A stretch of DNA of 64,000 nucleotides from an uncultured Desulfobacter sp. (GTDB lineage: Bacteria; Desulfobacterota; Desulfobacteria; Desulfobacterales; Desulfobacteraceae), in assembly GCA_963665095.1 (NCBI GenBank), contig OY762069.1:2688001-2752000 (forward strand), given 5' to 3'. Shown here in pieces: positions 42,220 through 59,755 of the stretch. The translations under genes and the position numbers were made by a program. Positions within the stretch are counted from its first letter, which is position 1; every line of letters begins with the position of its first letter. Below the pieces are notes generated by a model. That model was not told the origin of the DNA and ran no database searches. It was given only the letters and a program-made list of their open reading frames with translations.

Positions 42220-44217
42220 ATGAAACTAGTACACTACTTAAAATTATCCTTCCCTGCTGTAAGTATTATACTAAGTTTTTGTATCATCCTGCTGGTCGCA
42301 CAAAACCTTTCGGCCATGGAAAAAGAAATCTATAAAATAGGGATCCCGACAGACAAAGCGCCCTACTCCTTTACCGCCTGGTCCAAAAGCGGAATAAAGC
42401 TTCGGGGGGCCTATATTGATGTCATGACCCAGATTGCCCATCACATGGGTGTAGAATTCCAGTATGTGAAATCCGGCAATCCAACAATGATGATACAGCT
42501 TTTCAATGAAAAGAAGATCGATATCATAGGCATGACCCTGGAACAGGTCTTTCCTTATCATATTAAAAATTTAACTACGATCCCGGTAGGCCTTAACATG
42601 ACCTCCTGGATCTTTGTCAACCATTGTTGTAAAACCATTGTCTGCCAGAAAGACCTGCCCGGCAAACGGGTTTCCATCATCGGCTTTGAGGCGCTTGGGT
42701 TATGGCCCTATGACATGTTAGACGTGTCTGACATTTTCCCGGTCCAGACACCTCTGGAAGGGCTGACCCTGTTAAACGAGGGGCGGATACACGCCTTTAT
42801 TGCACCGTCAGAAGAGATTGCCAGCTACATTATTCACAAACATGGTTTTGAAAACGTGCGCAGGGTCGGCCTTGCCCTGAGAAAAATACCACTGGCCCTT
42901 TCCCTGGACAGAGAAGATACCCGGTTAACAGGCCGGCTGCTTGAAGCCATAGGGAAAACCATGTCATCAGGTATTATCCGCCAGATCGAAGAAAAATGGT
43001 ATGGGGTTGAGTTTAAACGCTCCTTTTTTGAAAAATACAGCCGTCTTGTTTTTTCTGTCATTGGGTTTACGGTGCTGGTTCTGGGCCTTGTTGTTATCTG
43101 GAACAATGAGTTGAAAAGGCAGGTAAAAAAAATCACGGCCCAGTATCGAACATCGGAAAACAGGTCCCGAAACCTGATCGAATCATCACCGGATATGATA
43201 TTTGTTGTGGACCGGGCAGCCAGAATCTATAATATGAACAGGGAGGCACAGGCTTTGATGCCAAAAGGGCTTGCCAAAGGGTTTCTTCCCCGCCTGACGG
43301 ATATGGTTCCCCCTGCAGACAAAAAATCAATTTCACTCTTCCTGGAAACCGTATTCTCCACAAACCGGGCAACCAAAGAGCTCCGGTTCAAAAGGCCCGA
43401 TTCAGGGTACAGGGAGATTGATGTTGCCGCCACCCTGCTTCCCTCGGAGCCCGGTGAAGAACCAAGAGCCTGTTTGTTTGCCAGAGATGTCACCCGGAAA
43501 AACCGGATTGAACGGGACCTGGTTCAAGCCGACCGCATGGCCCTGATCGGGCAGATGGCTGCGGATATTGCCCATGAGATTAACAATCCGATCGGTATCG
43601 TCAGAGCAAACATTGATGTGATCCTCGCCCGGGGCTGGTATACACCGGAAGCAAAGGAGTTTTTAGAGTCCTGCAAACGAAATACCGACCGCGCCGGTAA
43701 ATTTACAAAGGATCTTCTGGCAATGGCCAGGCCAAAGGATCCGGAGATGGCGGAACTGAACCTGTGGGAACTGGTCAACGCCACCATTGAAATCATGGGT
43801 GCCCAGTTAAAAAATGTCACCATCCAGAAGCAGACCAGGGGAGGTCCTGCACAAATTATCGGTGACCGCAACCTGTTACAGCAGGTTCTGGTCAACCTTC
43901 TTTTAAATGCCGCCGCCGCCACCAAAAAAGTAGCCGTCCCTGAAATAAAAATTACCAGCTGCGTCCCCAGCGGGCTTGACATGGTTTGTCTCAGAATTGA
44001 AGATAATGGAATCGGCATCCCCAAACAGCATTTAACAGAAATTTTTGAGCCTTTTTTCACACAGGGCAAAAAAGAGGGCTTCGGCCTTGGCCTTTTTATT
44101 TCCAAAAGAATTATAGAAAACCACAACGGCATGATTTACGCTGAGTCCGAGGTGGGTGTCGGCACCCAGATGGTCATCGAACTACCTTTGATTATAACAG
44201 ATCCTTTCACTTCCTGA
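42220..44217 (+). CDS. Sensor histidine kinase (periplasmic SBP_bac_3 domain, PAS, HisKA, HATPase; NtrB-like)
   Basis: APYSF periplasmic binding domain, TM, PAS (IESSPDMI), IAHEINNP, NLLLNA, DNGIGI and GFGLGL motifs. Confidence 0.93.
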   Translation: MKLVHYLKLSFPAVSIILSFCIILLVAQNLSAMEKEIYKIGIPTDKAPYSFTAWSKSGIKLRGAYIDVMTQIAHHMGVEFQYVKSGNPTMMIQLFNEKKIDIIGMTLEQVFPYHIKNLTTIPVGLNMTSWIFVNHCCKTIVCQKDLPGKRVSIIGFEALGLWPYDMLDVSDIFPVQTPLEGLTLLNEGRIHAFIAPSEEIASYIIHKHGFENVRRVGLALRKIPLALSLDREDTRLTGRLLEAIGKTMSSGIIRQIEEKWYGVEFKRSFFEKYSRLVFSVIGFTVLVLGLVVIWNNELKRQVKKITAQYRTSENRSRNLIESSPDMIFVVDRAARIYNMNREAQALMPKGLAKGFLPRLTDMVPPADKKSISLFLETVFSTNRATKELRFKRPDSGYREIDVAATLLPSEPGEEPRACLFARDVTRKNRIERDLVQADRMALIGQMAADIAHEINNPIGIVRANIDVILARGWYTPEAKEFLESCKRNTDRAGKFTKDLLAMARPKDPEMAELNLWELVNATIEIMGAQLKNVTIQKQTRGGPAQIIGDRNLLQQVLVNLLLNAAAATKKVAVPEIKITSCVPSGLDMVCLRIEDNGIGIPKQHLTEIFEPFFTQGKKEGFGLGLFISKRIIENHNGMIYAESEVGVGTQMVIELPLIITDPFTS

Positions 44218-44533: not shown

Positions 44534-47467
44534 ATGAATCTGAAGTGTAAAACCCAAACAATGAAAAACGCTCAATTGTTGTTCATATTTTTGCTGGTCT
44601 TTTTTCTGGGCTGGGCCGAACCAGGTATAGCGTCGGCGCCAAAAGATCCCCACGGACTGCAGCCGGCAGACGACATGGTGTTCCTTCCCAAACTTGCCGG
44701 CCTGCGGAACAAGACCTACAAGAACCAGTCCGGCAAGAAAAAGGCCCTGTCCGAAGCCCTTGTCCTTCGCCAGAGCAAAATAGAAAACAACAAGGCACAG
44801 GTATCGCCCGGAGGGCTGTTCTACATCTCGGAAACCAGCAATGATGCCCAGCCTTTTCACAGGGATCCGTTCCTTATTTTAGGAGAGCACTGTTACCTGG
44901 TGGATTTGTCCACAGATACCCATATAGTAAGGAATTTCAAGGTAAACATCGGGGACAGGGAACCGGTGAAGGATACTGGATACCGGATCTGGTACGACTA
45001 TGCCACGGATCACTATGAAAAACCATACGGCGAGTTTGCCCTGATTGCGCCTTCCGGGGGCTGGCCCCTGGAATTTCCGATATCCTCTTCTTTTCCCGGC
45101 AGGCAGGAGACCCGGGACTTGAATTCCGGTGAGGGATATGTGGACCAGCTGATCAAATTTTACCTGGATAAGGATTATTACTACGGGGCCATGCATTTTA
45201 AAGCCAGAGACATTGGTTTTGAAACAGCTGAATTTGAACGCTTTGAATTTCCCGCCATCACAAAGGCTACCTTTTCAATGCACCGCCCCATTTTCCTGGA
45301 CCTCCGCCAGGAGGATTATCGGCTCTACTTTGATAAAAGAATTTACGCATTCCGGCGGGCCGACGGATTTCTTGTCCGGGTGACCGATTTTTTCGGGAAA
45401 AAGGTATTTGCAGAAAAACTGGTCAAGCCGGTGACGGGACAAGGGTATAAGACCCTGATGTCGGAAAAGGATAAATACCATCTGACCATACCAAAGCTGG
45501 ATATCCGCATTGAAATTATGATCCAGCCGGAATTTATGAAAAATTCCGATTTCATGCCCTGGTCAACGGGAAAATCTCACGGATTCGGCAAGGGTGTACT
45601 GAACTTTGTGGTGTACCGGAAGCTGATCAAGGTTGAAAACGGACGCGCCTGGCCCCTGGATGACCGCTACAATGTGCGGCTCGAACCCAGCATGCTCACG
45701 GGAATGCTCAAACGACTGGTCATTGAAAACGCCCAGCCCGTTGTTTTTGACAATGAACATCCTACTTTTGACGGACCGGTAAAGTGGTCGGATATATACA
45801 ACAGGCCGGCATTCCAGGTCACGGCAGATAATTTCGAAGACAACCTGGTTAAAAATCTCTATGTCAGAGACTACTACATGATGCGTACGGACAACATGGT
45901 ATTCTGGGAAAAAGAGGGCCGGGAAAACATCGATTTTTTTGTGGGCTCATCACCCGTGCTGGAACCTATCCTGGAGGATACCTTTCTGACCCGCCTGGCA
46001 GACCCATCCTTTGGCGTGGTGGTGGAAAAATCCCATTTCACCTCTTATCCCAAAGCAATCAGTGATGCCTCCTTTTACGAGCCTGACCATACGGCCCCCT
46101 TTGTACCCCGCCTCAAAGGGCTGAAAAGGAAATTTGTCAGAAACAGAAAAAAGGAACGGCTGATCTCATCGGAGAGCGTGTTTATCCGGGGCAGTTACGT
46201 TGACTGGCGGAGAAATCAGATTATCATCCCGCCGGCAGGACTGTGCTACTCCACCAGAAATGCCAGAAATATCAGAACCCTGGCCGGGGAGTCCTTTTTC
46301 ATGCTGGGAAAACAGGCCTATCTGACCTCTTTCAAGTCATCCACTTTTGTTAAAAAAAATTTTGACGTGGATTTCTGGAAAAACCAGCCCATGGATGGCG
46401 GTAACCTCATGTACTGGCAGGATGAACTGTTAGGCGTCCGGAACAAGGCCCTGCGCATGACCGGTTTTCACTACCTGGATGACAGGCCGGTATCTGAGCT
46501 GAGTCTGATGAAATATTCAGGTAACCGGTGGGGGGCACATTTTCTCATGGCCCAGGGCCTGGACCCTGAAGGCGGAAACCGGTATCACCTGCCTGAAATC
46601 TTCGCTGAGGGATCCACCTGGATTATTCCGGAATATACGGGATCGAACTATATCAAAATCAAAGAGTTCGGCACGCCTTCCATCGAAGCCATCAGCTTTA
46701 CCTATACCAAACCCCGGGAAGCGGTTCTTGGCGCAGGAGATGAGGCCAGACTGGGTAAATACAGACTGGTGTGTACATTCATTGACATAGAGGCCGGCAC
46801 CATCGGCCTGGAATTAAAGGATGAGACCGGCAGTATCGTGGCATCCAAAATTCTGGGCCCCCTGGATGAGGGAGCTCTGCAACTGCTGCCCCAGCACCAG
46901 ACAGTGGCCAAGTCCATGCAGTTCATGTTTGAAGACCTGCAGGCGGAGCTGGACATTCTTACCCCCTTTAAAAAAGGAAAGGCTCAACTCTATCTTTTCA
47001 CGGATATTGAATTCCTGGAAAGAGATACCCCTTTCAATTTCGACAACCGCTTTATGGTCCGGCCGGATGTGTGCGGGCATTGCTATCAGCTCAACGAGGT
47101 TCTTTTGGATAATCCGGAACCGATTATCCTGGACATGAAAAACCCGGTTTACGATGGCCCCAGACGTGAAGACGGCACCCCGTTGTTCCGTATTGTCATT
47201 GACGATTTCGACGGTGAGATGCTCCATGCCTGGCACATGGAGACCGATGACGGGGACGGTATTGAAAAAACCGAAAACCTGGCGTTCAGGCCAAGGAACA
47301 ACCTGGATGTACTGGTGGGGGTCACCGGCACCACCGAAGGCTTTTTAAGGTTATCCATGCTGCCCCGCTTAGGATTTATCGAATCCTGGCGGACCAGTGC
47401 CAAAGCATCTGCAACCAAACTGTCCGGATCGGTTAACACCGGCGGTAGTGCCCATATCAGACGATAG
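44534..47467 (+). CDS. Exported hypothetical protein made of two homologous halves, CGHC motif in the second
   Basis: Signal peptide; alignable repeats (e.g. FLPKLAGL/FVPRLKGL, DDRYNVRLE/DNRFMVRPD, PTFDGP/PVYDGP). Alternative start at 44561. Confidence 0.85.
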   Translation: MNLKCKTQTMKNAQLLFIFLLVFFLGWAEPGIASAPKDPHGLQPADDMVFLPKLAGLRNKTYKNQSGKKKALSEALVLRQSKIENNKAQVSPGGLFYISETSNDAQPFHRDPFLILGEHCYLVDLSTDTHIVRNFKVNIGDREPVKDTGYRIWYDYATDHYEKPYGEFALIAPSGGWPLEFPISSSFPGRQETRDLNSGEGYVDQLIKFYLDKDYYYGAMHFKARDIGFETAEFERFEFPAITKATFSMHRPIFLDLRQEDYRLYFDKRIYAFRRADGFLVRVTDFFGKKVFAEKLVKPVTGQGYKTLMSEKDKYHLTIPKLDIRIEIMIQPEFMKNSDFMPWSTGKSHGFGKGVLNFVVYRKLIKVENGRAWPLDDRYNVRLEPSMLTGMLKRLVIENAQPVVFDNEHPTFDGPVKWSDIYNRPAFQVTADNFEDNLVKNLYVRDYYMMRTDNMVFWEKEGRENIDFFVGSSPVLEPILEDTFLTRLADPSFGVVVEKSHFTSYPKAISDASFYEPDHTAPFVPRLKGLKRKFVRNRKKERLISSESVFIRGSYVDWRRNQIIIPPAGLCYSTRNARNIRTLAGESFFMLGKQAYLTSFKSSTFVKKNFDVDFWKNQPMDGGNLMYWQDELLGVRNKALRMTGFHYLDDRPVSELSLMKYSGNRWGAHFLMAQGLDPEGGNRYHLPEIFAEGSTWIIPEYTGSNYIKIKEFGTPSIEAISFTYTKPREAVLGAGDEARLGKYRLVCTFIDIEAGTIGLELKDETGSIVASKILGPLDEGALQLLPQHQTVAKSMQFMFEDLQAELDILTPFKKGKAQLYLFTDIEFLERDTPFNFDNRFMVRPDVCGHCYQLNEVLLDNPEPIILDMKNPVYDGPRREDGTPLFRIVIDDFDGEMLHAWHMETDDGDGIEKTENLAFRPRNNLDVLVGVTGTTEGFLRLSMLPRLGFIESWRTSAKASATKLSGSVNTGGSAHIRR

Positions 47468-47482
47468 AAAGGAAAATTCATT

Positions 47483-48649
47483 ATGCCAACCACTGTCTCA
47501 TCCGCTCCGGGCAGCTACAATCAGAGAAGACGATCCTTTCTGAGTTCTCTGTACACATTTAAAGAAGCACTTCCCGGTCTTCTGGCCATGCTTTTCATAG
47601 CGGTATTTGCCAACAACATGCCCGGGGTTCCCAATGCCTTTACCCTGCAGAACCTGTTCCGATGGATGGATGGCGTTGCCGGTCCTTTTAACCATCAGCC
47701 CCTGTTTCAGATCCTGAATTCAAACTTTGTCTGGAATCCCCTGCTTTTAGGGCTTATTATCGGAAACCTGTTTGGTGTGCCGGATATCTGGAAACGGGGT
47801 TTAAGCTATATCCACCTGCTCATGCCTTTGGGGATCATCATGCTGGCGCCCCATTTCATGGTTTTCCATGCCTTCAAGATCGGGGTTCTGCCCATTCTTA
47901 TCTGCACCCTGGCTCTGTTCGCCACAGCCAGTATTACCCTCTATGTAACCAAATGGATGAACCTGGATGACCGTCACGGATCCATTATCGCAGGCGGCCT
48001 TGCCACAGGGGATCCCCATGCCTGCGCCATCCTCATGCCTTTGATCAAAGCACCGGGGGCCCAGGTGGTCAATGCAGTCTTCGGGGTGATCACATGGGGG
48101 CTGATCGCCATGGTCCTGGTTCCCCTATTCGGGCAGATGATGGGTATTCCTGAGAAATATCTGGGGCTTGCTGCAGTGACGGCGGTGGGGAACGGCCACC
48201 AGGCCCTGTATGCCGGTTATGCAGCCGGGTACGAAGCCGGGCGGTATGCCTGCTGGTTTGATGTGGGGCGTCATGTCATCATGCCTTCGGGATTCATCTA
48301 TGTGTTCACGGTAATGTTTATCAGAAAACTGAAAAACAGAAATAACCCGGAAATCAGAGCCACCCGGGGCATAAAAACCTTCCCGATCTGGCTGGGTGTA
48401 TTTATTTTCTGCTGGATACTGTCTTGTCTCCATCTGTTTAAGGAACCGGCCCATCATGCCATATTCAACATGGTCAGATGGGATTTCTCCCTGGCAGCCG
48501 CGGCCTTAGGCTTAAGCCTGTCCTTTAAGGATATCGCCAGGGCCGGCATTAAAGGGTTTCTGGTAACGGCCATTTCAGGATCCATCCGGATCGTGCTGGT
48601 TCTTGGGACAATTTTAATCTGTTTTAAGGCGGGATGGTTTCCGGCCTGA
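47483..48649 (+). CDS. YeiH/PSE-family (putative sulfate exporter) membrane transporter
   Basis: About 10 TM helices; LLLGLIIGN and AAAALGLSLSFKDIARAGIKG are typical of UPF0324, though divergent. Confidence 0.7.
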   Translation: MPTTVSSAPGSYNQRRRSFLSSLYTFKEALPGLLAMLFIAVFANNMPGVPNAFTLQNLFRWMDGVAGPFNHQPLFQILNSNFVWNPLLLGLIIGNLFGVPDIWKRGLSYIHLLMPLGIIMLAPHFMVFHAFKIGVLPILICTLALFATASITLYVTKWMNLDDRHGSIIAGGLATGDPHACAILMPLIKAPGAQVVNAVFGVITWGLIAMVLVPLFGQMMGIPEKYLGLAAVTAVGNGHQALYAGYAAGYEAGRYACWFDVGRHVIMPSGFIYVFTVMFIRKLKNRNNPEIRATRGIKTFPIWLGVFIFCWILSCLHLFKEPAHHAIFNMVRWDFSLAAAALGLSLSFKDIARAGIKGFLVTAISGSIRIVLVLGTILICFKAGWFPA

Positions 48650-48662
48650 GGGGCGAATCGCT

Positions 48663-48815
48663 ATGGAAAGAAATATGCACACCACAGATGAAGCAGGGTT
48701 TGACTATATGGCCAACACAGGCATGGAAGAACAGGACAGGGATACATGCGGCATGGCCATTGCGCTGATCATTATGACTGTTCTGACCATCTGCCAATAT
48801 CTGGGGCTGTACTAA
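48663..48815 (+). CDS. Small single-TM protein (50 aa), not in the ORF track
   Basis: MERNMHTTDEAGFDYMANTGMEEQDRDTCGMAIALIIMTVLTICQYLGLY; GAGGGG RBS-like sequence upstream. Confidence 0.55.
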   Translation: MERNMHTTDEAGFDYMANTGMEEQDRDTCGMAIALIIMTVLTICQYLGLY

Positions 48816-48843
48816 CCATTAATAGATTTTGGAGCGTTTGTTT

Positions 48844-49041
48844 ATGTTTTCCGCAATTATTTTTGTCTGCCTCATGCTCCTGCTTTTTCTGGCCGGCGGG
48901 GCAGCCGTTCACATGGGAGTATTTAAATCCCACAAACAGGGAAAATCCCTGGCATCAAAAACCATTACCGGGATCCTGTCCTATGGGTTTTCCGCTGTGT
49001 TCTGGTTTTTCAGTTATACCCATTTTTATCTGGGCTGGTAG
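48844..49041 (+). CDS. Small two-TM membrane protein
   Basis: GGAG before ATG at 48844; two hydrophobic segments. Confidence 0.65.
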   Translation: MFSAIIFVCLMLLLFLAGGAAVHMGVFKSHKQGKSLASKTITGILSYGFSAVFWFFSYTHFYLGW

Positions 49042-49141
49042 GGGGGCCGTGTTCAGGCCGGGCCGGCCGCGGGCACCTATTGGAACAACAGGTTACTATT
49101 TAACATCTGCCCATGGAAACCGGGCAGCAGAAAGGTGAAAA

Positions 49142-49444
49142 ATGACATTAGAAAAATGGATTGTAGCTCTTCTTGTAAGCGTATTTCTTCTTGTGAACAC
49201 AGGCTTAGGGGTTGCATCGGACGACAAGGCCGGGAAGATAAATTTGAACACGGCCACCAAGGAACAACTCATTGGTCTGGGCATGGATGAGGATACCGCC
49301 AATGCCGTACTGGAGCACAGAAAAGAAAACGGAGAATTTGTGGATATTGAGGAACTGCTCGATATAGAGGGCATTGATAATAATATGATCCGGCAGCTTA
49401 AAAAGAAAATCTATATAGAGGGTGTCAAGGGATGCAATTGTTAA
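49142..49444 (+). CDS. Exported ComEA-like helix-hairpin-helix protein, C-terminal GCNC
   Basis: Signal peptide; KINLNTATKEQL...HRKENGEF..IEELLDIEGI. Confidence 0.88.
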   Translation: MTLEKWIVALLVSVFLLVNTGLGVASDDKAGKINLNTATKEQLIGLGMDEDTANAVLEHRKENGEFVDIEELLDIEGIDNNMIRQLKKKIYIEGVKGCNC

Positions 49445-49469
49445 GCACTTTATCCGGAGAAAAACAGCT

Positions 49470-50618
49470 ATGAATACAAATAGACGATACAGATTTTATA
49501 TTGCCCTTGCGCTTCTGGCTTTCCCCCTTTGGGTGAATGCCGAAATTTTGGGGAATTACATGGGATACGAGGCCTGCATCAAATGCCATGAAGAAATTGT
49601 CCAGGGCTGGAAAACCACGCCCCATGCCAATGCGTTTGAAACGCTTAAGGAACAGGGCGAGGAGAAACAGTCCATCCCCGGGTGTTTCAAATGTCATGTG
49701 GTGGGCTTTGAAGAAGATGGCGGTTTTGTGGATATGGCACTTACCCCGGAATTAAAAGATGTCCAGTGTGAAAACTGCCATGGGCCGGCCAGAAAGCACG
49801 TTGAAAGTGAAGGGAATCCGGATCTTATCATTGGATCTCCAAACGAAGCTTCCTGCCGGATCTGCCATACCACAGGCCAGGATAAAAACTTTGACTTTAA
49901 GAAAAAAAGTCAGTGGGTCCACGCCGCAAAGGGTGCCGATGGAAAAATGGGAAAGACCCAGGCCAAGGCCGTTGAAATTCTGAATTTCAGTGAAACCCGG
50001 GTGGAATTTGGCAACATGGTTGAAGGGGACATTGTTAAAAAAAAGGTAACCGTGACCAACACGGGAAACAAGACCGTCACACTGACCAACCTGACCACGT
50101 CGTGTGCGTGCACGTCGGCTACACTGGGTAAGCGTGAACTTCAACCCAGGGAATCCACGGAGCTGGAAATTACCTACTATACCTATAAATTTCCCGGCAA
50201 ATTTGCCAAATTTATTACCGTATTTACTGACATCCCGGGCAAGGACCAGTACCGGGTGGACATCAACGGTTTTGTCAAGGCCATTCCCATGGGCGTGCTT
50301 GAGGTCCAGCCAAGAAAAATCGCCCTGGGTGAAAATCTGAAAACCGGCACGCCCCTGCCCTTTACCATATCAATCACCAATACAGGGGATGCAGAGATGA
50401 AAATTACCAAAATTGTATCCAAAAAAAGAAAAACCCTGTTTTTTGATTCTGACCGAACCGGGGAATTAATTATTAAACCGGGTGACACAGCCAATATTGA
50501 CACTGAAGTTATCTACGACAGCAAAGGACGGATGCTTGACTATATCATGATTCACTCCAATGCCCGAAACGTTACCTCACAAGGATATAAGGTAATATTG
50601 ACAGGAACGTTTGAATAA
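49470..50618 (+). CDS. Tetraheme cytochrome c (c554-like) fused to two Ig-like (DUF1573-type) domains
   Basis: CIKCH, CFKCH, CENCH and CRICH; then FGNM...VTNTG...SCACT and ITNTGDAEM...SNA. Confidence 0.88.
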   Translation: MNTNRRYRFYIALALLAFPLWVNAEILGNYMGYEACIKCHEEIVQGWKTTPHANAFETLKEQGEEKQSIPGCFKCHVVGFEEDGGFVDMALTPELKDVQCENCHGPARKHVESEGNPDLIIGSPNEASCRICHTTGQDKNFDFKKKSQWVHAAKGADGKMGKTQAKAVEILNFSETRVEFGNMVEGDIVKKKVTVTNTGNKTVTLTNLTTSCACTSATLGKRELQPRESTELEITYYTYKFPGKFAKFITVFTDIPGKDQYRVDINGFVKAIPMGVLEVQPRKIALGENLKTGTPLPFTISITNTGDAEMKITKIVSKKRKTLFFDSDRTGELIIKPGDTANIDTEVIYDSKGRMLDYIMIHSNARNVTSQGYKVILTGTFE

Positions 50619-50703
50619 AAGTACCACTTAACGCGTCCCCTTTGCTTTATCCGGATCCGGAAAAGCAAAGGGGATAACATGCTGAAAGGAGTTGATAAGA
50701 AAA

Positions 50704-52149
50704 ATGAAACGCAGAGAATTTATTAAAGGTATTGCCGCAACGGCTGTAACCCTGGCTGCGAGCAATCCACTTAAACTATTGGCCTTCCCCACGGTTTTTC
50801 CCCACGGAACCACCATCTACAATCCTGAAAAATGCTTTAACGGATACACCCTGTTCGGCACTGAAGTGGTTGACCAGGGCACGGTTCTCATTAACATGAA
50901 CGGAGAGGTCGTCAGGCAATGGAAAGATATCTGTCAGGCGGAACACCCGCCAAAGCTTCTCAAGGGTGGATTTATCGCCGGAACCAGAAGGCCTGAGCCC
51001 GGGAAAAAAGGCAGGATCTGGAACGACGAACATTCTACAGATCTGGTTGTGGCTGACTGGGACGGTAAAGCAGTCAGAACCATACCCAGGGCCGGGATGC
51101 ATCATGATTACCAGTTTGAAGGCAACTCCGTGGGATATCATATCCCGGGTATGCCCGTGGAAAATCACAAGGGAAAAATGCTGATCCTCTCCCACAAAAT
51201 GGTGGAGAACAAGGATATATCGGACAAGCTGCTCTATGACGACTATATCGCCGAGATAGATGCTCAGGGTAAAATCACCTGGGACTGGCTGGCCTCCGAT
51301 CATTTCCATGAAATGAATTTTCCCGAAGAATTCAAAAAAACCATGCGCGAATACCCCACCTTTTCCATGACCCGGACCCCGGGAGTCAAGGGCGGGGACT
51401 GGATTCACGTGAATTCCGCGTCCTGGCTTGGCCCCAACAAATGGTACGACGAGGACCCGGTCGCATACAAGGTTTTTCATCCGGACAATATTATCATCTC
51501 AAACCGCCAGACCAATACCTCATGCATCATCGAAAAAAGTACGGGAAAAGTGGTGTGGCAGATAGGTCCCTATTACTATCCCGATTCGGTGTGGGAATTC
51601 GGCGGAAAAGAATACAAACGGGCCTATCGGCGCCTGGAGCAGATTATCGGCCAGCACCACACCCACATGATCCCCAAAGGACTGCCCGGAGAGGGCAACA
51701 TCCTGATATACGACAATGGGGGATATGCGGGTTACGGCCCCAGAAATCCAGGTGCCCATTACGGATGGTCAGATGCCAGAAGGGATTACTCCCGGGTCAT
51801 TGAGTTTGACCCCAGAACCCTGAAAATGGTCTGGGAACATTCGGCCATGGTCATGGGCATGCGGAACAAGTACCAGTTCTATTCCGACTACGTTTCCAGT
51901 GCCCAGCGGCTGCCCAACGGCAACACCTTAATTACAAACGGTGCCGTGGGACAGCTTCAGGAGGTCACCCCGGATCATGAGATTGTCTGGGAGTACATCA
52001 GTCCCTACTATAACCAAAAAGGGAAATACAACCTGGTGTACCGGGCCTACCGGGTGCCCTATGATTATGTGCCCCAGCTCGGTGCCCAGAAACAAAAGGC
52101 CGTGGTTCCCCCGGACAATACCCGGTTCAGAATTAACCCCCAGGGATAA
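50704..52149 (+). CDS. Aryl-sulfate sulfotransferase (ASST family), Tat-exported
   Basis: KRREFIK Tat motif; PHGTTIY, HHD, WIHVNS, SNR, GQHH, YDNG and SSAQRLPNGNTLI motifs. Confidence 0.88.
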   Translation: MKRREFIKGIAATAVTLAASNPLKLLAFPTVFPHGTTIYNPEKCFNGYTLFGTEVVDQGTVLINMNGEVVRQWKDICQAEHPPKLLKGGFIAGTRRPEPGKKGRIWNDEHSTDLVVADWDGKAVRTIPRAGMHHDYQFEGNSVGYHIPGMPVENHKGKMLILSHKMVENKDISDKLLYDDYIAEIDAQGKITWDWLASDHFHEMNFPEEFKKTMREYPTFSMTRTPGVKGGDWIHVNSASWLGPNKWYDEDPVAYKVFHPDNIIISNRQTNTSCIIEKSTGKVVWQIGPYYYPDSVWEFGGKEYKRAYRRLEQIIGQHHTHMIPKGLPGEGNILIYDNGGYAGYGPRNPGAHYGWSDARRDYSRVIEFDPRTLKMVWEHSAMVMGMRNKYQFYSDYVSSAQRLPNGNTLITNGAVGQLQEVTPDHEIVWEYISPYYNQKGKYNLVYRAYRVPYDYVPQLGAQKQKAVVPPDNTRFRINPQG

Positions 52150-52223
52150 TTTCCCCCAGGAATCAATTGTGAGGCAAAGACCCTGGAATAAAAGAAAACG
52201 ATAGTTTAAATCAGGAGGGCAAC

Positions 52224-52565
52224 ATGTTTAAACCCGCACGACTTCTTACATATGGCATTTTCTGTTTTTTGGCAGTTCTTCTGTTTAGCCCGGCCATGGC
52301 AGGAGATGGCATTATCAGCCTGAACAAGGCAGATCTTCAAGAGATCAAAGCACTGTTTGTTGATGAACTCGATCTTCCCGAAGAGCTTGCAAGGTCCCTT
52401 GTGGAATATCGCAAGGCCAACGGTAGCTTCAAATCACCCGAGGACCTGATCAAGGTGCCGGGTATGACCCAGGATTTTATCGAAGAGATCAACCCGCAGC
52501 TCATTGACAATGACGTGGTTTACGATCCGGATGCAGAACCGGCACTGGCGCCTTCGAAATGCTGA
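52224..52565 (+). CDS. Exported helix-hairpin-helix protein, C-terminal LAPSKC
   Basis: Signal peptide; ISLNKA...YRKANGSFKSPEDLIKVPGM. Confidence 0.88.
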   Translation: MFKPARLLTYGIFCFLAVLLFSPAMAGDGIISLNKADLQEIKALFVDELDLPEELARSLVEYRKANGSFKSPEDLIKVPGMTQDFIEEINPQLIDNDVVYDPDAEPALAPSKC

Positions 52566-52613
52566 ACCAGAAGTGCTGAACCAAGGTTGAACTGAAATTT
52601 AAAGGAGAACATA

Positions 52614-52952
52614 ATGAAATCATTAACCGGAAAAATATTTTTTGCACTGCTCTTCATGGCCGTCACCTTTATTTCGTCCGGTGCTCAGGCTGGCGTAGAG
52701 GATGACTTTATCAGTTTTAATACGGCCCCGGCATCGGAATTCCTGAAAATTCAAATTGTACAGGTCCCTGAGGCCGTAGCCAACGCCATTGTCAAGTACC
52801 GGGAAGCAAACGGCCCCTACAAAACCCCTGAAGATCTCAAAAAGGTCCCCGGAATGACGGATGACCTGTTCGATGCCCTTGATCCCATCGAGGAAGAGGG
52901 AGACATCGTGTTTGAAAAAGCCGGCGGCCCCGGCGGGATGAACGCTTATTAA
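52614..52952 (+). CDS. Exported helix-hairpin-helix protein, C-terminal GGPGGMNAY
   Basis: Signal peptide; ISFNTA...YREANGPYKTPEDLKKVPGM. Confidence 0.88.
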   Translation: MKSLTGKIFFALLFMAVTFISSGAQAGVEDDFISFNTAPASEFLKIQIVQVPEAVANAIVKYREANGPYKTPEDLKKVPGMTDDLFDALDPIEEEGDIVFEKAGGPGGMNAY

Positions 52953-53029: not shown

Positions 53030-54394
53030 ATGAAAAAGAAAGTTCTGCTGCCCCTGCTCCTTGTCTTTGCCTGGATGAGCACGGCCAGTGCATATGAAGC
53101 TTTTACCGGCCCCACCGGGGTCCTTCACTGGGACAAAAAAAAGGCCTATGAAGGGTATACCTTGTTTGCCCCCATGGTCAACTGCACGACCACCTACCTT
53201 ATAGATATGGAGGGCAATGTTGTCCATACCTGGGAAAGCAAATTTCCTCCCGGACTCTATGCCGAGCTTCTTCCCAACGGAAATCTGCTCAGGGCAGCCA
53301 CGCTTCCCAGAAAATCCAAAAAGGGATACTGCGGAATCGGCGGTGCCGGCGGACTGATCGAAGAGATCGACTGGGACGGAAATGTGGTGTGGCGGTACAA
53401 ACTATGGGAAAAGAACAAGGAAATTCAGCACCATACTTTTTACCGGCTGCCCAACGGCAACACCATGATCCTTGCCTGGGAAGTAAAGCCCATACAGGAA
53501 GGCATTGATAAAGGAAGGGACCCTGCCACCCTGCCCGATAAACCGGTGACCCAGAAGGGTGTGCCCATGGACGACTGGTGGGTGGATTTTGTCCGGGAAG
53601 TAGATCCGGCCGGCAACACGGTCTGGGAATGGCATGTGTGGGATCATGTCGGCACAGGACCCGACCAGCTGGACATCAACTACAAGCTGCCTGATCCTGT
53701 TGGACTGACCTATCCCAACTGGGACTGGAGCCATTTCAACACCATTGATTATATTCCGGAAACCGATCAGGTGGTATTAAACTCCAGAAACTTTGCCGAG
53801 TTCTACTTCATCAACCACAAAACCGGTAAAATCGAGTACCGGTGGGGTAACCCTTCTGCCTATGGCAAGGGGAAAAGACCTTCCTGGTATGACAACGGAG
53901 ATCAGAAGGTGTTTGGCACCCATTGCTCCACAGTCCTTGAAAACGGAAATATCCTGCTTTTTGATAACGGATCCGAAGGTCCTGAGGAGAGACGGTCGGC
54001 CGTGTTTGAGATCAACCCCAAGACCGATGAGGTGGTATGGAAATTTGAACCCAAGCATACCAGCAGTTTCTTCTCCTACCGCCAGGGCGCGGCCCAGAGG
54101 CTTCCCAACGGGAATACCCTGGTTACCTCCACCCATGGGGGACATTTGTTTGAAATCAACAAACGGGGGGATGTGGTCTGGGATTATGTCAGCCCGGTAT
54201 TCAGCGGGAAAATGAAATGCGTGGCAGAAGATGATGACGCTTTCGACCGGAAATACCACCAGAACGGCATGACCAACATGATTCACCGGGCATACCGTTA
54301 CGGTGCGGATTATCCGGGGCTGAAAGGGAAAGACCTGAGTCAGAAAACGCCCATGGTCAAAGACTGCCCCGCATTTTTTAAGACATATAAATAA
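53030..54394 (+). CDS. Aryl-sulfate sulfotransferase (ASST family), Sec signal
   Basis: GYTLFAP, QHHT, WSHFNT, NSRN, GTHC, FDNG and AQRLPNGNTLV motifs. Confidence 0.88.
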   Translation: MKKKVLLPLLLVFAWMSTASAYEAFTGPTGVLHWDKKKAYEGYTLFAPMVNCTTTYLIDMEGNVVHTWESKFPPGLYAELLPNGNLLRAATLPRKSKKGYCGIGGAGGLIEEIDWDGNVVWRYKLWEKNKEIQHHTFYRLPNGNTMILAWEVKPIQEGIDKGRDPATLPDKPVTQKGVPMDDWWVDFVREVDPAGNTVWEWHVWDHVGTGPDQLDINYKLPDPVGLTYPNWDWSHFNTIDYIPETDQVVLNSRNFAEFYFINHKTGKIEYRWGNPSAYGKGKRPSWYDNGDQKVFGTHCSTVLENGNILLFDNGSEGPEERRSAVFEINPKTDEVVWKFEPKHTSSFFSYRQGAAQRLPNGNTLVTSTHGGHLFEINKRGDVVWDYVSPVFSGKMKCVAEDDDAFDRKYHQNGMTNMIHRAYRYGADYPGLKGKDLSQKTPMVKDCPAFFKTYK

Positions 54395-54629: not shown

Positions 54630-55985
54630 ATGAAATATAATGTATTATTCATTGATGACGAAAAGGATTTTTTAACAGCTCTCAAGGGGTATTTTACCAT
54701 AAACTATGAAGTGCAGACGGCTGAATCAGGGGCTAAAGGACTGAGCCTTCTGGAGCAGACCCAGTTTGATGCTGTAGTTACGGATATGTCCATGCCCGGA
54801 GGAATGGATGGACTTGACGTGATCAGGGAAATCAGAAAAACAGACCCCCTTCTTCCCATTATCATCATGACAGGCGTTGGCACCATTAAAAATGCCGTTG
54901 AAGCCATCCAGCAGGGCGCCTTTCATTATATTACCAAACCCTTTGGTTCTGATGAGCTTGAAATCACCCTGCGCCGGGCCATTGAGAGCGGCCAGCTTCA
55001 CCGGCGGCTTGCCAGACAGGAAGGCGAATCCAGGAAGGACAACGATTATGTCTTCGGCTCAAGCCGTCAGATACAAGATATCATGCAGACAATTGACAAG
55101 GTGTCCGACTCTGATGCACCCATCCTTCTTTTGGGAGAAACCGGAACCGGAAAGTCCATGATAGCCAAACATATCCACAAGACAAGTACCCGGAAAGACA
55201 AGCCTTTGTTCACCATCGACTGTGCTGCCCTGGCAGAGACCCTTCTGGAAAGTGAACTCTTTGGGCATGTCAAAGGTGCTTTTACAGGCGCCGTCTCAGC
55301 CAAGCGCGGACTGTTGGAAGAGGCGTATGGCGGTACCATCCTGCTGGATGAAATCGGGGAGCTTTCCCCGTCCACCCAGGTCAAACTGCTCCGCGCAGTC
55401 CAGGAACTTGAAATCCGGCCGGTGGGGGGTAACCGGCCGGTGAGTATAGATGTCCGGTTTATATCGGCAACCAGCCGGAATCTGGAGGATGAAATAGAAA
55501 AAAACCTATTCAGAAAGGATCTATATTTCCGTCTGGCTGTTATCTCCTTAACCCTGCCCCCCCTAAGGCAAAGGAAATTTGATATTCCCCAGTTTGTGGC
55601 CCATTTCCTGGAAAAATTTAACCAACGGTACAAAAAAAGGATTACCCGGCTTGAACCCTCCGTCCTCCAGGACCTTCAACAATTGCCCTGGAAGGGAAAC
55701 ATCCGGGAACTGGAAAATACCATGGAGCGGATGGTGCTGCTGGCGGACCGTGACGTGGTCACCCGGGATCTGTTATATTTTTGTGATAAAAATAATTGTT
55801 GCCAGGAAACGGACACGCCCAACGACCACATCTCCTCCTTAAAAGAAGTGGTCCAGGATGCTGAAAGCCTGGCCATAAAGCAGGCCCTTGAGCTGACACA
55901 GGGCAACCGGACCCTGGCAGCCAAGCTTTTAGGTATCGGAAGGCGTACCCTCTACGTCAAGATGGAAACCTACGGAATTAACTGA
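54630..55985 (+). CDS. Sigma54-dependent response regulator (NtrC/AtoC family)
   Basis: Receiver domain, GETGTGKS, ESELFGHVKGAFTGA, WKGNIRELEN and Fis HTH. Confidence 0.95.
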   Translation: MKYNVLFIDDEKDFLTALKGYFTINYEVQTAESGAKGLSLLEQTQFDAVVTDMSMPGGMDGLDVIREIRKTDPLLPIIIMTGVGTIKNAVEAIQQGAFHYITKPFGSDELEITLRRAIESGQLHRRLARQEGESRKDNDYVFGSSRQIQDIMQTIDKVSDSDAPILLLGETGTGKSMIAKHIHKTSTRKDKPLFTIDCAALAETLLESELFGHVKGAFTGAVSAKRGLLEEAYGGTILLDEIGELSPSTQVKLLRAVQELEIRPVGGNRPVSIDVRFISATSRNLEDEIEKNLFRKDLYFRLAVISLTLPPLRQRKFDIPQFVAHFLEKFNQRYKKRITRLEPSVLQDLQQLPWKGNIRELENTMERMVLLADRDVVTRDLLYFCDKNNCCQETDTPNDHISSLKEVVQDAESLAIKQALELTQGNRTLAAKLLGIGRRTLYVKMETYGIN

Positions 55986-56316: not shown

Positions 56317-56448
56317 AAGTTATGGGTAATCAAGGACTAACGGAACATTTTAAACGCGATGTTGCAGGATGTTCCATTGAGGCGAGAGCCAAAGCCTCCC
56401 GAGGGGGGGTGTGTATTTCAGTTTACTTTTACTTTACACGGAGGAGAG

Positions 56449-57738
56449 ATGAAAAAGTCTTTTATTGCGACCTTAGCTTTGATTTGCTGCATGGTGTGGT
56501 CGGTCCCTGCATTTGCCGTGGATTTTGAGTATGGCGGTTATTGGAGGACACGTGCTTATACCATGAACGGATTCACCGGAGACGGTGATGATGAATCCCT
56601 TGATATGTCCAAGGTGGATGCCAGGGGACGGTTATGGACCAAACACATTATCAACGAGGAAACATCCTGGACAAACCGGATCGAGTTCAACGTGATCTGG
56701 GGGGATGAAGACAATGGCGGGGGCATTGCCACCGACGGTACAGACTATATCCGGTTCAAACACTCTTATATGGATTATGACACCACCGTATTTAATACAG
56801 ACATGCACTTAAGAATGGGTCTTCAGGGATTTACAGTGGCCAACGGCATGCTGTTTGATGATGATTTCGCCGGCCTGATCCTTTCCCACGAAGGCAGTAC
56901 CGCCACCCACAGATTCATCTGGATGAAAGTATTTGAAGGCAGCACGCTTTCCGGAGAATATGAAGAGGACCTGGAGGACCTGGATGTTGATTTCCTCGGG
57001 TTATCCTCCACTTTTAACTTCATGAACGATGCCCTGGCCCTGAACGCCTACGTCTTTTACCTGACCTCCGACGACGGCCGGGAGTGGTCTGCCACCACCG
57101 GAAACCAGGAGATCAGCGTTTATTATCTTGGCGCAGATATCAAGTACACCCTTGACAGCGGAAACATCTGGGGGGTTCTCCTGTATGAAGGCGGTTCCGC
57201 AGATGTTGTCAATTCAGATGTCGAATATGATATGAAGGCCTATATTGCAGCCCTTGGCGGAGAAATGAATCTGGGCAAAGTGGGCATCCATGGTCAGGTA
57301 TTCTATGCCAGCGGCGATGACGACCTCAGTGACACGGATGTAACAGGCTTTTACGTGCCAAGGGGCCAAAGCTACTACTGGTCTGAAATCATGGGCATGG
57401 GTGTATTTGATTACACAGCCAGCAGCGGTTCCCCGGCAGATACCATCTCCAATGTTGTTGCCGGCAACTTGGGTATCAGCTATGAGGTATCCCAGGACTT
57501 AAGCCTTACCGGCGATATCTGGCACGCCCGGCATGCAGATACCAACGTACTGGTCACAGAAAAGACGCTGGGTACGGAAATTGACCTTCGGGCCGATTAT
57601 AAAATCAATGAAGACCTCAACCTGGTCGTGGTGGGGGCATACCTGTTTGCCGATGATGCAACCACCATGGGTGCCGATGACGCGTCTGATGTCTATGAAA
57701 TCGGCATGCAGTTATCCTTTAGTTTCAGTACCCTCTAA
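56449..57738 (+). CDS. Outer-membrane beta-barrel porin (deltaproteobacterial type)
   Basis: Signal peptide AFA-VDFEYGGYWRTR, alternating beta-strand pattern, LGTEIDLRADYKI and acidic loops. Confidence 0.8.
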   Translation: MKKSFIATLALICCMVWSVPAFAVDFEYGGYWRTRAYTMNGFTGDGDDESLDMSKVDARGRLWTKHIINEETSWTNRIEFNVIWGDEDNGGGIATDGTDYIRFKHSYMDYDTTVFNTDMHLRMGLQGFTVANGMLFDDDFAGLILSHEGSTATHRFIWMKVFEGSTLSGEYEEDLEDLDVDFLGLSSTFNFMNDALALNAYVFYLTSDDGREWSATTGNQEISVYYLGADIKYTLDSGNIWGVLLYEGGSADVVNSDVEYDMKAYIAALGGEMNLGKVGIHGQVFYASGDDDLSDTDVTGFYVPRGQSYYWSEIMGMGVFDYTASSGSPADTISNVVAGNLGISYEVSQDLSLTGDIWHARHADTNVLVTEKTLGTEIDLRADYKINEDLNLVVVGAYLFADDATTMGADDASDVYEIGMQLSFSFSTL

Positions 57739-57759: not shown

Positions 57760-59685
57760 ATGAAAAAAATCCTTTTGGTGCTGACTGTGACTTTGATGGC
57801 CTCGGCAGCCTATGCTGCATCCCAGTTCTACAGCGCCACCGAATTGAACTACCACAACCCGGATACAGCCTATCAAGGGTATACCCTGTTTCATTCCATG
57901 AACGGGGAACAGACCACCTTCCTCATTGACATGGAAGGCCAGGTGGTCCATGCCTGGCCCATGGATGCTGACAAGTGGTCCATATCCAACAGTGTTCATT
58001 TTTATGAAAACGGGCTTCTTTTGAGGACCCAGACGCCCCAGTACGTGGGCAAATTCAAACTGGGATCCAGTGGTGGCAATCCCATGCTCGGAACCGTTTA
58101 TAAATTTTTAGACTGGGATAACAATGAAGTTTATTCCGTACGCCATCCTTTGCACAAGGATCCCACCGAAGCAGAGCTCCAACAGATATTCGGCCTTACT
58201 GATGATCAGATGAATGATCAGACAGCCATTGATGCGGCAGTGGCAGCCATGACCACAGCCCAGCAAGAAGAGATCAAGGCGCTTATCGACTACCGGGAAC
58301 ACCATGACGCAAAGATGATCTGGAATAAAAACTTAGGCAAATACACCATCATGTTTATTGCCAATAAAAAATTAACCGAGGAAGAGGTGCTCAACGCTGG
58401 TCAGGACCCTGATCTTGTGGATGTATCCACGATCTCTTCCTATCCCCACCTGGTTGATACGGACGTGATCGCTGAAGTCGATATCCAGACCGGAGAGCTG
58501 ATCTGGCAATGGTGGAGCGGGGATCATCTGATCCAGAACTACAGCGAGACTGCGGACAACTATGCCCAGGATATTGCAGACTGGTACTATGATGGGGATC
58601 TGCAGGAAGCCCATTACCACCGTCTGGATATCAATCATAAAAACAATCAGGGAATTTTCGGCCTGCGGGAAGACTTTTTTCACACCAACTCCTTTGACTA
58701 CAATGCCGATCGGGACGAGGTGGTATTGAATTCCAGGACATTCTCCGAATTTTTCGTCATTGACCATTCCAAGACCACAGAAGAGCTCAAGGGTAAAGCA
58801 GGCGACTTTTTATGGCGGTTCGGATCGCCCAGCAACTATTCATCCAAAGACCAGCTCGGAGAGGACCACGCGGATGTGGTTGCCTATCCCGGGGCCCGGG
58901 ACGCGTCTCTGGACCAGATTTACGGCGCCCACGACATTCACTGGATTCCAGAGGGGGAACCCGGTGCCGGCCATTTTATGATCTATGACAACGGTATTTT
59001 CCGTCCTGTATACCAGAACTCTGCCGTGCTGGAGATCAACCCCTACGATGACAACGGCAATTACATCCGGGAGCTGGATGCCGGCTACAAAACCAGCATG
59101 ATGCTCTATCCGGGAGCTATTGGCGCTGGCACATTTATGTACGGGTCCTATTTCAGTACAACCGTTAATTACATGAAGCCCTCCAACCTCATCACCTGGG
59201 CGTTTACCAGCAACTCCTGGAATTTTTTCGGCCCCCATATTTCAGGGTGCCAGCGTCTGGCCAATGGAAACACCCTGATCTGTGACGGCCCCAACGGCCA
59301 TTTCTTTGAAGTGACCACAGAGGGCCGGGTGGTCTGGGAGTACACAAGTCCTCTGTATGGAAGCACCATGTCCATGCCCGCCCTGAAAATCTTCGGAGAC
59401 CAGACCAGCATGTATATCGGCGCCACCACAAACAGCGGATTGACCTATGACGGGCAGGAGATCATCGGTGGCAGCGGCTTCTTTAACAGTGTTTTCCGCG
59501 CCTACCGGTATGGAACGGATTTTGCCGGTTTTTCCGGTAAGAATCTCGTGCCCATGGGTACGGTTGTGGAATATATGCAAAATGATGGAACACCATCATT
59601 CACCGGATTCGGATTCGGCGGAGGGATAGGCGGTTCCGGCGGTTCCGGCGGCGGTGGTGCCGGCGGTTCCGGCGGTGGATACTAA
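57760..59685 (+). CDS. Aryl-sulfate sulfotransferase (ASST family) with insertions and Gly-rich tail ending in Tyr
   Basis: GYTLF, EHHD, FFHTNS, NSRT, GAHD, YDNG and CQRLANGNTLI motifs; C-terminus GFGFGGGIGGSGGSGGGGAGGSGGGY. Confidence 0.87.
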   Translation: MKKILLVLTVTLMASAAYAASQFYSATELNYHNPDTAYQGYTLFHSMNGEQTTFLIDMEGQVVHAWPMDADKWSISNSVHFYENGLLLRTQTPQYVGKFKLGSSGGNPMLGTVYKFLDWDNNEVYSVRHPLHKDPTEAELQQIFGLTDDQMNDQTAIDAAVAAMTTAQQEEIKALIDYREHHDAKMIWNKNLGKYTIMFIANKKLTEEEVLNAGQDPDLVDVSTISSYPHLVDTDVIAEVDIQTGELIWQWWSGDHLIQNYSETADNYAQDIADWYYDGDLQEAHYHRLDINHKNNQGIFGLREDFFHTNSFDYNADRDEVVLNSRTFSEFFVIDHSKTTEELKGKAGDFLWRFGSPSNYSSKDQLGEDHADVVAYPGARDASLDQIYGAHDIHWIPEGEPGAGHFMIYDNGIFRPVYQNSAVLEINPYDDNGNYIRELDAGYKTSMMLYPGAIGAGTFMYGSYFSTTVNYMKPSNLITWAFTSNSWNFFGPHISGCQRLANGNTLICDGPNGHFFEVTTEGRVVWEYTSPLYGSTMSMPALKIFGDQTSMYIGATTNSGLTYDGQEIIGGSGFFNSVFRAYRYGTDFAGFSGKNLVPMGTVVEYMQNDGTPSFTGFGFGGGIGGSGGSGGGGAGGSGGGY

Positions 59686-59717: not shown

Positions 59718-59755
59718 CGGGCGCTGCACAATGATGTGCAGCGCCCGTTATTTTT
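59718..59755 (+). terminator. Intrinsic terminator
   Basis: cgggcgctgcaca/tgtgcagcgcccg stem followed by ttattttt. Confidence 0.85.

Follow-up and report, generated by a model that had tools for sequence, protein, structure and literature searches.

Invariant reactive tails on three acidic helix-hairpin-helix proteins beside aryl-sulfotransferase-like enzymes in Desulfobacter: candidate carriers rather than DNA receptors

Why should three small secreted proteins, which public databases name after the competence receptor ComEA, be encoded among aryl-sulfotransferase (ASST) and cytochrome genes in a sulfate reducer? The question is raised by a stretch of 64,000 nucleotides from an uncultured Desulfobacter sp. 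(assembly GCA_963665095.1, contig OY762069.1, positions 2,688,001 to 2,752,000 of the forward strand), here called the window, whose numbering is used throughout unless another locus is named. The three proteins, designated H1, H2 and H3, carry a helix-hairpin-helix (HhH) domain, and each ends in a short tail with a reactive residue. An earlier interpretation made from the letters alone (the sequence-only reading) had taken them for swinging-arm carriers of Tyr-O-sulfate or Cys-S-sulfonate, or for a dithiol shuttle. From the comparison of homologs we think it rather probable that the invariant tails are swinging arms that would give a dithiol, a thiol and a phenol to a redox protein and to ASST-like enzymes, and that these proteins are not DNA receptors. 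The architecture of that proposal is well supported by the invariance of the tails against the drift of the domains, by a Tyr tail found either in cis or in trans, and by synteny; the Tyr-O-sulfate, the Cys-S-sulfonate, the dithiol relay and a possible release of sulfite are plausible chemistry that we infer. The genes on which the argument turns are the following.

49142..49444, plus strand: H1, secreted acidic HhH protein of 100 amino acids, C-terminus G-C-N-C (tail at nucleotides 49421-49441)
49470..50618, plus strand: tetrahaem c554-like cytochrome fused to two DUF1573/OS_HP2-like immunoglobulin-like (Ig) domains (Pfam, NCBIfam, four CxxCH)
50100-50114 (nucleotides), plus strand: S-C-A-C-T in the first Ig domain of this cytochrome
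50692..52149, plus strand: ASST1, aryl-sulfotransferase-family beta-propeller with an RREFIK twin-arginine-type signal and without a C-terminal tail (PF05935, 75.2 bits against a cut-off of 24.2 bits)
52224..52565, plus strand: H2, secreted acidic HhH protein of 113 amino acids, C-terminus ...DPDAEPALAPSKC (tail at nucleotides 52524-52562)
52614..52952, plus strand: H3, secreted acidic HhH protein of 112 amino acids, C-terminus GDIVFEKAGGPGGMNAY (tail at nucleotides 52899-52949)
53030..54394, plus strand: ASST2, aryl-sulfotransferase-family propeller with a Sec-type signal, tailless in the window (PF05935, 83.7 bits)
57760..59685, plus strand: ASST3, ASST-family protein of 641 amino acids with a poly-Gly linker and a terminal Tyr, ...GGSGGGY (PF05935, 56.7 bits)

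The three HhH genes were recovered on the plus strand exactly where the sequence-only reading had placed them, and their products match HHH_3 (PF12836) at 54.4 (H1), 43.9 (H2) and 50.8 (H3) bits, with a cut-off of 27. Its account of their general make-up also holds. Each protein begins with a hydrophobic N-terminus and an A-x-A-type cleavage site, read from the sequence (LGVA/SDD, PAMA/GDG and GAQA/GVE, respectively), and the mature chains are rich in Asp and Glu, with pI values of 4.64, 4.11 and 4.12 and net charges of -6, -11 and -10; the canonical ComEA of the same genome, in contrast, has a pI of 8.05 and a net charge of +1 (these are whole-chain charges, not a surface map). The tails end in GVKGCNC (H1), EPALAPSKC (H2) and AGGPGGMNAY (H3), as described. 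The genes are interleaved with the three ASST-family genes and the four-CxxCH cytochrome gene listed above, and no competence family was found among the 43 window open reading frames (ORFs) covered by the Pfam scan (of 52 non-overlapping ORFs of at least 80 amino acids, the other nine being small).

The residues with which ComEA holds DNA are missing from all three. DNA binding by ComEA of V. cholerae is reported to require a Gly hairpin and a Lys pair (G60, K62 and K63), the Lys contacting DNA phosphates, in the accessible text of that study (PMC3879209). At these Gly and Lys positions H1, H2 and H3 have acidic or neutral residues. The second hairpins, correctly read earlier as IEGIDNN (H1), VPGMTQD (H2) and VPGMTDD (H3), stand against VKGIGPK in the separate canonical ComEA encoded in the same genome, a protein of 93 amino acids (L002 1483-1764, minus strand) that keeps V-K-G-I-G-P-K. 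In the first hairpin, H1 retains G-L-G followed by an acidic M-D-E-D, and G-h-G is absent from both hairpins of H2 and of H3; the hairpin pairs are GLGMDED/EGIDNN in H1, ELDLPEE/PGMTQD in H2 and VQVPEAV/PGMTDD in H3. The NCBIfam models for ComEA also score all three below their thresholds: TIGR00426 (cut-off 53.1 bits) gives 45.5, 30.2 and 45.2 bits and TIGR01259 (cut-off 152.35 bits) gives 43.2, 32.2 and 32.7 bits for H1, H2 and H3, respectively.

The likeness to ComEA is therefore one of build, with about 100 amino acids, a signal peptide and a two-HhH HHH_3 fold. The differences lie in the acidic character of H1-H3, in the replaced G-h-G-x-K hairpins, in the invariant reactive C-terminal tails, in the scores below the family cut-offs and in the gene neighbourhood, as the homologs are always encoded beside ASST or cytochrome genes and never beside competence genes. 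The mis-annotation foreseen in the sequence-only reading is indeed present in public sources, which label homologs as ‘ComEA family DNA-binding protein’ or ‘competence protein ComEA’, although H1, H2 and H3 fall below the cut-offs and the DNA-contact features are absent; more than 100 database entries named ‘ComEA’ are probably misnamed.

A pattern scan using one genome per species yielded 20 related loci across Desulfobacterota, from Desulfovibrionales, Desulfosarcina, Desulfarculia, Desulfopila, Desulfoluna, Desulfobacula, Desulfomicrobium, Syntrophales and Syntrophorhabdales. In H1, H2 and H3 alike, no other part is conserved as strongly as the tail. The alignment of homologs that had been suggested as a check on the terminal Cys, C-x-C and Tyr finds these residues retained in every homolog examined. 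H2 homologs end in LAPSKC in 108 of 108 cases, down to 48% identity, and nearly all have ...DPDAEPALAPSKC; over 37 aligned homologs the majority fraction is 0.99 in the last 13 residues vs 0.72 in the domain. All 29 homologs of H1 end in C-N-C or C-D-C, and the orthologs in the fetched loci end in C-[NTG]-C (14/14). The ending GMN[AS]Y, preceded by GD-I-[VI]-F-E-K, is kept in 16 of 16 homologs of H3, and five further clusters at 50% identity, of small HhH proteins that end in GMNAY, GMHSY, RMHGY, GMPSY and GVSGY, came from a HMMER scan of 1.84 billion representatives. In the divergent Syntrophorhabdales locus L045, three HhH genes end in ...LPRY, ...KPSKC and ...DCTC.

At the level of DNA the H2 tail is far from frozen. 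Each codon position of the tail is filled by two to four codons among 19 orthologous genes, mostly synonymous ones, and the stop codon is TGA in 11, TAA in five and TAG in three, with downstream sequence that is not conserved. Since the codons of the tail differ almost always by synonymous changes and the stop is not fixed, selection acts on the tail peptide, not on the DNA; from the varied stop and the non-conserved sequence after it, the Cys of H2 is the true C-terminus. The window has TAA for H1 and H3 and TGA for H2, and selenocysteine read-through at the latter was considered and rejected, since neither the stop codon nor the sequence of the extensions is kept among the 19 genes. The Pro/Ala-rich composition of the H2 tail suggests that the arm is mobile. 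As a separate observation, multi-repeat HhH_3 proteins of 168-299 amino acids (P0154 and P0258) end in ...EEGGSGMFQ or ...EDEGGGMF, Gly-Met tails of a similar kind without a terminal Tyr.

The Tyr tail deserves special attention, for it is found on two different proteins. In most genomes the ASST2 orthologs are 20-50 residues longer than the protein in the window and finish with G-P-x-M-x-[AS/H]-Y behind a linker that is acidic or rich in Ala and Pro; such endings include ...PAKAPAEDDGGDGPTMNAY and ...EEEDEEDGPTMHSY. By its residues, this C-terminal tail is the one that H3 bears in the window. The tail of ASST3-type proteins consists of poly-Gly and a last Tyr, a type also present in L043 and L040. 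A terminal Tyr was found in 17 of 20 ASST2/ASST3-type proteins, 16 of them with an Ala/Pro-rich, acidic or poly-Gly linker before it, and in none of 17 ASST1-type proteins. Two of the three ASST2/ASST3-type proteins without it (ASST2 of the window and that of L045) adjoin a gene for an HhH protein ending in Tyr, and none of the loci with a tailed ASST2 has such a gene. Four contigs of a gut-metagenome species (L047 5881-7639 and L048-L050) have a minimal form of the set and encode a sigma-54-dependent response regulator (RR), an HhH protein ending in PTGMHSY and an ASST-family protein which is 29% identical to ASST1 and has no terminal Tyr. Three chemically distinct flexible linkers that end in Tyr, together with the exchange between cis and trans, are what a tethered mobile arm predicts, and they are hard to square with a fixed subunit contact.

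The presumed partners of these tails show a residue pattern that may correspond to the catalytic His and the sulfuryl-holding His, His-x-Asn and Arg of this family. Across the 37 ASST-type proteins of these loci, HH, H, W-x-H-x-N, R and H vary little or not at all. A set that looks comparable in E. coli ASST is His252, His356-x-Asn358, Arg374 and His436, as given in the accessible part of a 2026 review (PMC13426309), and the Asn-to-Arg spacing of 16 in ASST2 is that of Asn358 to Arg374, in a comparison at the level of motif patterns. The AlphaFold2 (AF2) model of one ASST2 ortholog reached a predicted template modelling score (pTM) of 0.80, and the ten best PDB fold matches for this ortholog were Cpz4 and E. 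coli ASST, as expected of the six-bladed propeller of the family. Seventeen orthologs of ASST1 were found at 59-80% identity. According to the same text, aryl sulfotransferases sulfate tyrosine and Tyr-containing peptides via a sulfo-His intermediate, and the natural acceptors and physiological roles of most of them are unknown or poorly understood (PMC13426309).

The window enzymes share with E. coli CFT073 ASST (assT-dsbL-dsbI) and Streptomyces Cpz4 the Pfam family, the fold, the periplasmic location and what looks like the same H-x-N...R...H pattern. The ASSTs described in the accessible text of the review, unlike those of this cluster, have no tethered Tyr arm, carriers or cytochrome partner (PMC13426309), and the cluster in turn lacks the DsbL/DsbI pair of CFT073. 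Four distant ASST1-like proteins (46-47% identity; L052 2988-4439 and 7890-9335, L053 6240-7838 and L054 6209-7645) have no HhH neighbour and carry a C-terminal extension of their own with two conserved Cys (...EGCxP[YF]E...ALCV[AV]S...), which fits Cys-bearing elements working with ASST1-type enzymes.

The wider neighbourhood comprises further genes, some of which recur with the carriers.

42220..44217, plus strand: sensor histidine kinase (HK) with periplasmic SBP_bac_3, PAS, HisKA and HATPase_c domains (Pfam)
44534..47467, plus strand: U977, secreted beta-rich protein of 977 amino acids without a family, C-G-H-C at residues 847-850 (nucleotides 47072-47083)
47483..48649, plus strand: YeiH-like membrane protein (PF03601, 94.2 bits)
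54630..55985, plus strand: sigma-54-dependent RR with REC, AAA+ and HTH_8 domains (Pfam)
56359..57738, plus strand: putative outer-membrane beta-barrel protein, accessory in this genome (weak Alginate_exp match, 18.8 bits, below the cut-off)
59718..59747, plus strand: terminator-like hairpin at the end of the cluster, with a stem of 13 bp (10 GC pairs) followed by a T-run
61123-62193 and 63061-63975, minus strand: phage-integrase-family genes

Mapping of the window proteins on the related loci revealed two conserved modules, one of HK, sigma-54 RR, ASST2, ASST1 and H2, the other of U977, the YeiH-like protein, H1 and the cytochrome. In 18 of the 19 loci with a LAPSKC gene, the window included, ASST1 is the gene immediately before H2, the exception (L044) having masked bases. 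Likewise, H1 directly precedes the cytochrome gene in 10 of 14 loci, the HK ortholog adjoins the RR in 15 of the 20, and the YeiH-like gene comes after that for U977. The outer-membrane beta-barrel gene had no counterpart in the 20 related loci at a threshold of E<=1e-5, with weak matches in L052 and L053.

Sigma-54-like GG-N10-GC sites precede H1 (48749-48763), the porin-like gene (56301-56315) and U977 (44425-44439); the pattern is not enriched across the window, with 79 matches vs 77.7 expected, and these three well-placed sites count little. The space between the YeiH-like gene and H1 contains an ORF of 130 amino acids without a family match (48746-49138), which is probably not a gene. The window also encodes a Pyr_redox_2 protein with a C-terminal rhodanese domain (22858-24579) and an aldehyde:ferredoxin oxidoreductase (8328-10475), both ordinary for an anaerobe.

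The partner of H1 is a redox protein by all appearances. The cytochrome has four CxxCH motifs followed by two DUF1573/OS_HP2-like Ig domains, the first with S-C-A-C-T; the Ig domain matches DUF1573 at 86 bits and NF041425 at 52.7 bits, below its cut-off of 100 bits. In four of nine orthologs the first Cys of S-C-x-C-T is replaced by an in-frame TGA, giving S-U-S-C-T (L035 6993-6995, L037 16112-16114, L038 16190-16192 and L042 11413-11415, the last on the minus strand), and the copy in the window (50103-50105) is Cys. All four TGA orthologs have a hairpin resembling a selenocysteine insertion sequence (SECIS), with a GC stem of 7-8 bp and a GGN loop, which starts 17 nucleotides downstream; it was not seen in the folds of six Cys-encoding forms of the cytochrome, that of the window included. 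The cytochrome beside H1 is accordingly a predicted selenoprotein in four of its nine orthologs.

A Cys/Sec (selenocysteine) pair usually marks a position with redox activity. The terminal C-x-C of H1 would thus face a C/U-x-C centre wired to four haems, in what appears to be a thiol/selenol redox protein. The match to DUF1573 and the Cys/Sec pair at C-x-C link the Ig domain to the OS_HP2/DUF1573 (seleno)proteins, from which it differs in its score below the NF041425 cut-off and in its fusion to a tetrahaem domain. The selenoproteins of the paper that is the source of OS_HP2 are, in its accessible text, mostly similar to thiol oxidoreductases, the function of OS_HP2 itself being unknown (PMC1976440). 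In two loci (L031, about 265-1416, and L042, about 10906-12064) the tetrahaem and DUF1573 parts are separate genes, with a stop after ...VHGxK and then a new signal peptide.

U977 adds a further candidate dithiol to the H1 module. Its orthologs are 48-69% identical, and C847, G848, H849 and C850 are invariant in 9/9. The C-terminus in the window is ...NTGGSAHIRR (47426-47464); NTGGSA[HY]I[RPK]R is present in six of nine orthologs, and the three divergent ones end otherwise.

Combined, these elements suggest a scheme in which the three tails would work in series. An external aryl sulfate would donate its sulfuryl group to the catalytic His of ASST2, and this enzyme would hand the group on to the arm and so form Tyr-O-sulfate at the terminal Tyr; ASST1 would then move it to the terminal Cys of H2 as S-sulfocysteine. 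The dithiols of H1 and of the CGHC in U977 might attack this S-sulfocysteine, so that sulfite would be released and a disulfide left, which the Cys/Sec-x-Cys haem protein would re-reduce; transport of the oxyanion over the inner membrane might fall to the YeiH-like protein. A dsrA gene (605 bits) and a dsrB-like gene adjoining it equip the genome for sulfite reduction. Flux may run from aryl sulfate to sulfite or in reverse, from sulfite and oxidising power to sulfate esters. We regard as unlikely, albeit worth stating, the scheme in its full extent, namely a periplasmic, ATP-free ‘aryl-sulfate reductase’ in which sulfuryl groups would pass from ASST2 over the Tyr arm and ASST1 to the HhH Cys, be reduced by C-x-C, CGHC and the Cys/Sec-tetrahaem protein to sulfite, and be delivered to DsrAB by the YeiH-like protein.

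Several observations weigh against the carrier reading or parts of it. The accessible text of the review records no precedent for sulfuryl transfer from an ASST to a thiol (PMC13426309). ASST1 is remote from the solved ASSTs, as searches of PDB sequences with the single protein and with a profile of 17 sequences gave a best E of 0.07. For an ASST2 ortholog that naturally bears the tail (L030:6901-8403), AF2 gives a confident propeller but leaves the tail (residues 467-500) undocked, with a predicted local distance difference test (pLDDT) score below 50, and the model is uninformative on docking. H3 lies outside the conserved core; besides the copy in this genome there are 15 homologs from metagenomes and a few more clusters. 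For U977 there is no match in Pfam, NCBIfam or the protein atlas and no recognisable fold, and the role given to this protein is a guess; its AF2 model has a mean pLDDT of 63.8, and the best Foldseek match, an S-layer DUF1608 domain with TM values of 0.12/0.31, is uninformative. The YeiH-like protein scores 42.1 bits with TIGR00698 (‘YeiH family putative sulfate export transporter’), below the cut-off of 232.6 bits, and the substrate of the YeiH family is itself only putative.

Among the alternatives, the one that survives best, and which we still find quite doubtful, is that H1-H3 are non-catalytic accessory subunits resembling PsbU, in which the HhH fold serves a structural role without DNA; their tails would dock on or ligate a partner, through a Cys on haem or metal or a Tyr as plug, and so stabilise or gate it. 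Precomputed Pfam labels do list PF06514 for a few homologs, but H1-H3 gave no match to it at E<=0.01. The tight gene pairing would suit stable subunits equally well. What speaks for a mobile arm instead are the long Ala/Pro-rich, acidic or poly-Gly linkers before the Tyr, the occurrence of the same tail in cis or in trans, and the AF2 model, which does not dock it.

Less probable again is that the terminal Tyr and Cys are pseudo-substrates that fill the active sites of the ASSTs, protecting the sulfo-His or regulating the enzyme, with nothing passed on. Tyr is a known acceptor of ASSTs in the accessible text of the review (PMC13426309), a tethered acceptor could serve as a lid, and a cis tail on ASST2 would suit self-regulation. 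This idea leaves unexplained why a Cys arm is co-conserved with a second ASST and a C-x-C arm with a Cys/Sec haem protein, along with the CGHC protein and the transporter.

We give very little credence to a third possibility, that a small peptide-derived cofactor or natural product is made from the tails, with the HhH domain as leader or scaffold. The extreme conservation of the last residues over those upstream recalls the C-terminal Tyr or Cys cores of PqqA or MftA, but no radical-SAM enzyme, peptidase or cyclase was found in the conserved loci mapped, the signal peptides are of the Sec type, and in most genomes the Tyr tail is fused to an enzyme of 450 amino acids. Least probable of all is that H1, H2 and H3 are ordinary ComEA-type periplasmic DNA receptors brought into the cluster by chance, a notion that draws on the HHH_3 matches, the partial NCBIfam matches and the ComEA labels in the sources and that runs against scores of 45.5, 30.2 and 45.2 bits under a cut-off of 53.1, net charges of -6 to -11, replaced hairpin Gly and Lys, a canonical ComEA encoded elsewhere in the genome and a synteny with ASST and cytochrome genes that is strict across orders.

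The swinging-arm carrier that we favour for H1-H3 has parallels in known systems. SoxY, which works in the Sox pathway of thiosulfate oxidation together with SoxAX, has an Ig-like sandwich fold and a GGCGG arm. The carrier SoxYZ binds sulfur-oxyanion adducts, S-sulfonate among them, in the periplasm on a C-terminal Cys, as described in the accessible text of the source (PMC5336275). The likeness lies in a reactive terminal Cys on a C-terminal arm (H2, 108 of 108 homologs) and in a carrier served by a c-type cytochrome and other enzymes. The fold is unrelated, the tails are APSKC and GCNC rather than GGCGG, the partners are ASST propellers, the hosts are sulfate reducers, and three carriers with three distinct end groups are present here. 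H1-H3 matched only HhH families in Pfam and NCBIfam and contain no GGCGG, and they would be SoxY-like in their working at most.

The proposed chemistry has its closest counterpart in APS/PAPS (adenosine 5'-phosphosulfate/3'-phosphoadenosine 5'-phosphosulfate) reductase (CysH), whose Cys on a flexible C-terminal tail becomes S-sulfocysteine, from which a thioredoxin dithiol frees sulfite, according to the accessible parts of two sources (PMC1175818; bioRxiv 10.64898/2026.09.04.749436). Both the S-sulfocysteine on a tail Cys and the dithiol-driven release of sulfite would be shared. CysH, in contrast, is cytoplasmic, takes sulfate from a nucleotide donor and bears its tail in cis; here the proposed donor is an aryl sulfate via ASST, the tail belongs to a separate HhH protein, and the candidate reductants are C-x-C, CGHC and the Cys/Sec haem protein. 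C-terminal arms are also known from the C-G-C tail of Erv2, the DsrC arm, and the lipoyl and acyl carrier protein (ACP) arms with their Ala/Pro linkers. In these, too, a flexible terminal segment ferries a dithiol or a substrate, and Ala/Pro-rich linkers recur in the cis tails of ASST2; folds, compartments and chemistry are different, and no prosthetic group is present here. Our literature search found no paper that pairs ASSTs with HhH/ComEA proteins, cytochromes, S-sulfocysteine or a swinging arm, subscription journals not being covered by it, and a search on PDB code 9KF4 returned nothing relevant.

Of 401 genomes sampled from the phylum, 26 carry an ASST1-type gene (E<=1e-80), and these belong to 16 of 255 genera; a search of 24 relatives from the same genus gave ASST2 matches in only five, each of them weak (E 3e-7 to 1e-24). 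The distribution of the cluster is therefore patchy. The cluster ends at a strong terminator just upstream of the two phage-integrase-family genes and of a drop in GC to 0.43. These integrase genes, the GC drop and the absence from most same-genus genomes searched suggest that the cluster may mark the border of a mobile island.

Enzymes that transfer aryl sulfate groups independently of PAPS have been studied for decades as biocatalysts. The cluster supplies candidate partners for ASSTs: a tethered Tyr arm, a Cys-ended carrier, a C-x-C carrier and a Cys/Sec haem protein. If the carrier reading is true, they would be the first natural partners of aryl-sulfotransferase-like enzymes; being small, soluble and easy to express, they make their role directly testable by intact-mass spectrometry. 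A protein-bound Tyr-O-sulfate, if it is formed, would be a new kind of group carrier. A relay running toward sulfite would be an unrecognised entry into dissimilatory sulfur metabolism and, should the aryl-sulfate reductase exist, sulfate esters would be respired without the two-ATP cost of sulfate activation; a relay running in reverse would offer a PAPS-free route to sulfate esters. On the carrier reading, a DNA-binding fold would have been recruited as the scaffold of a carrier.

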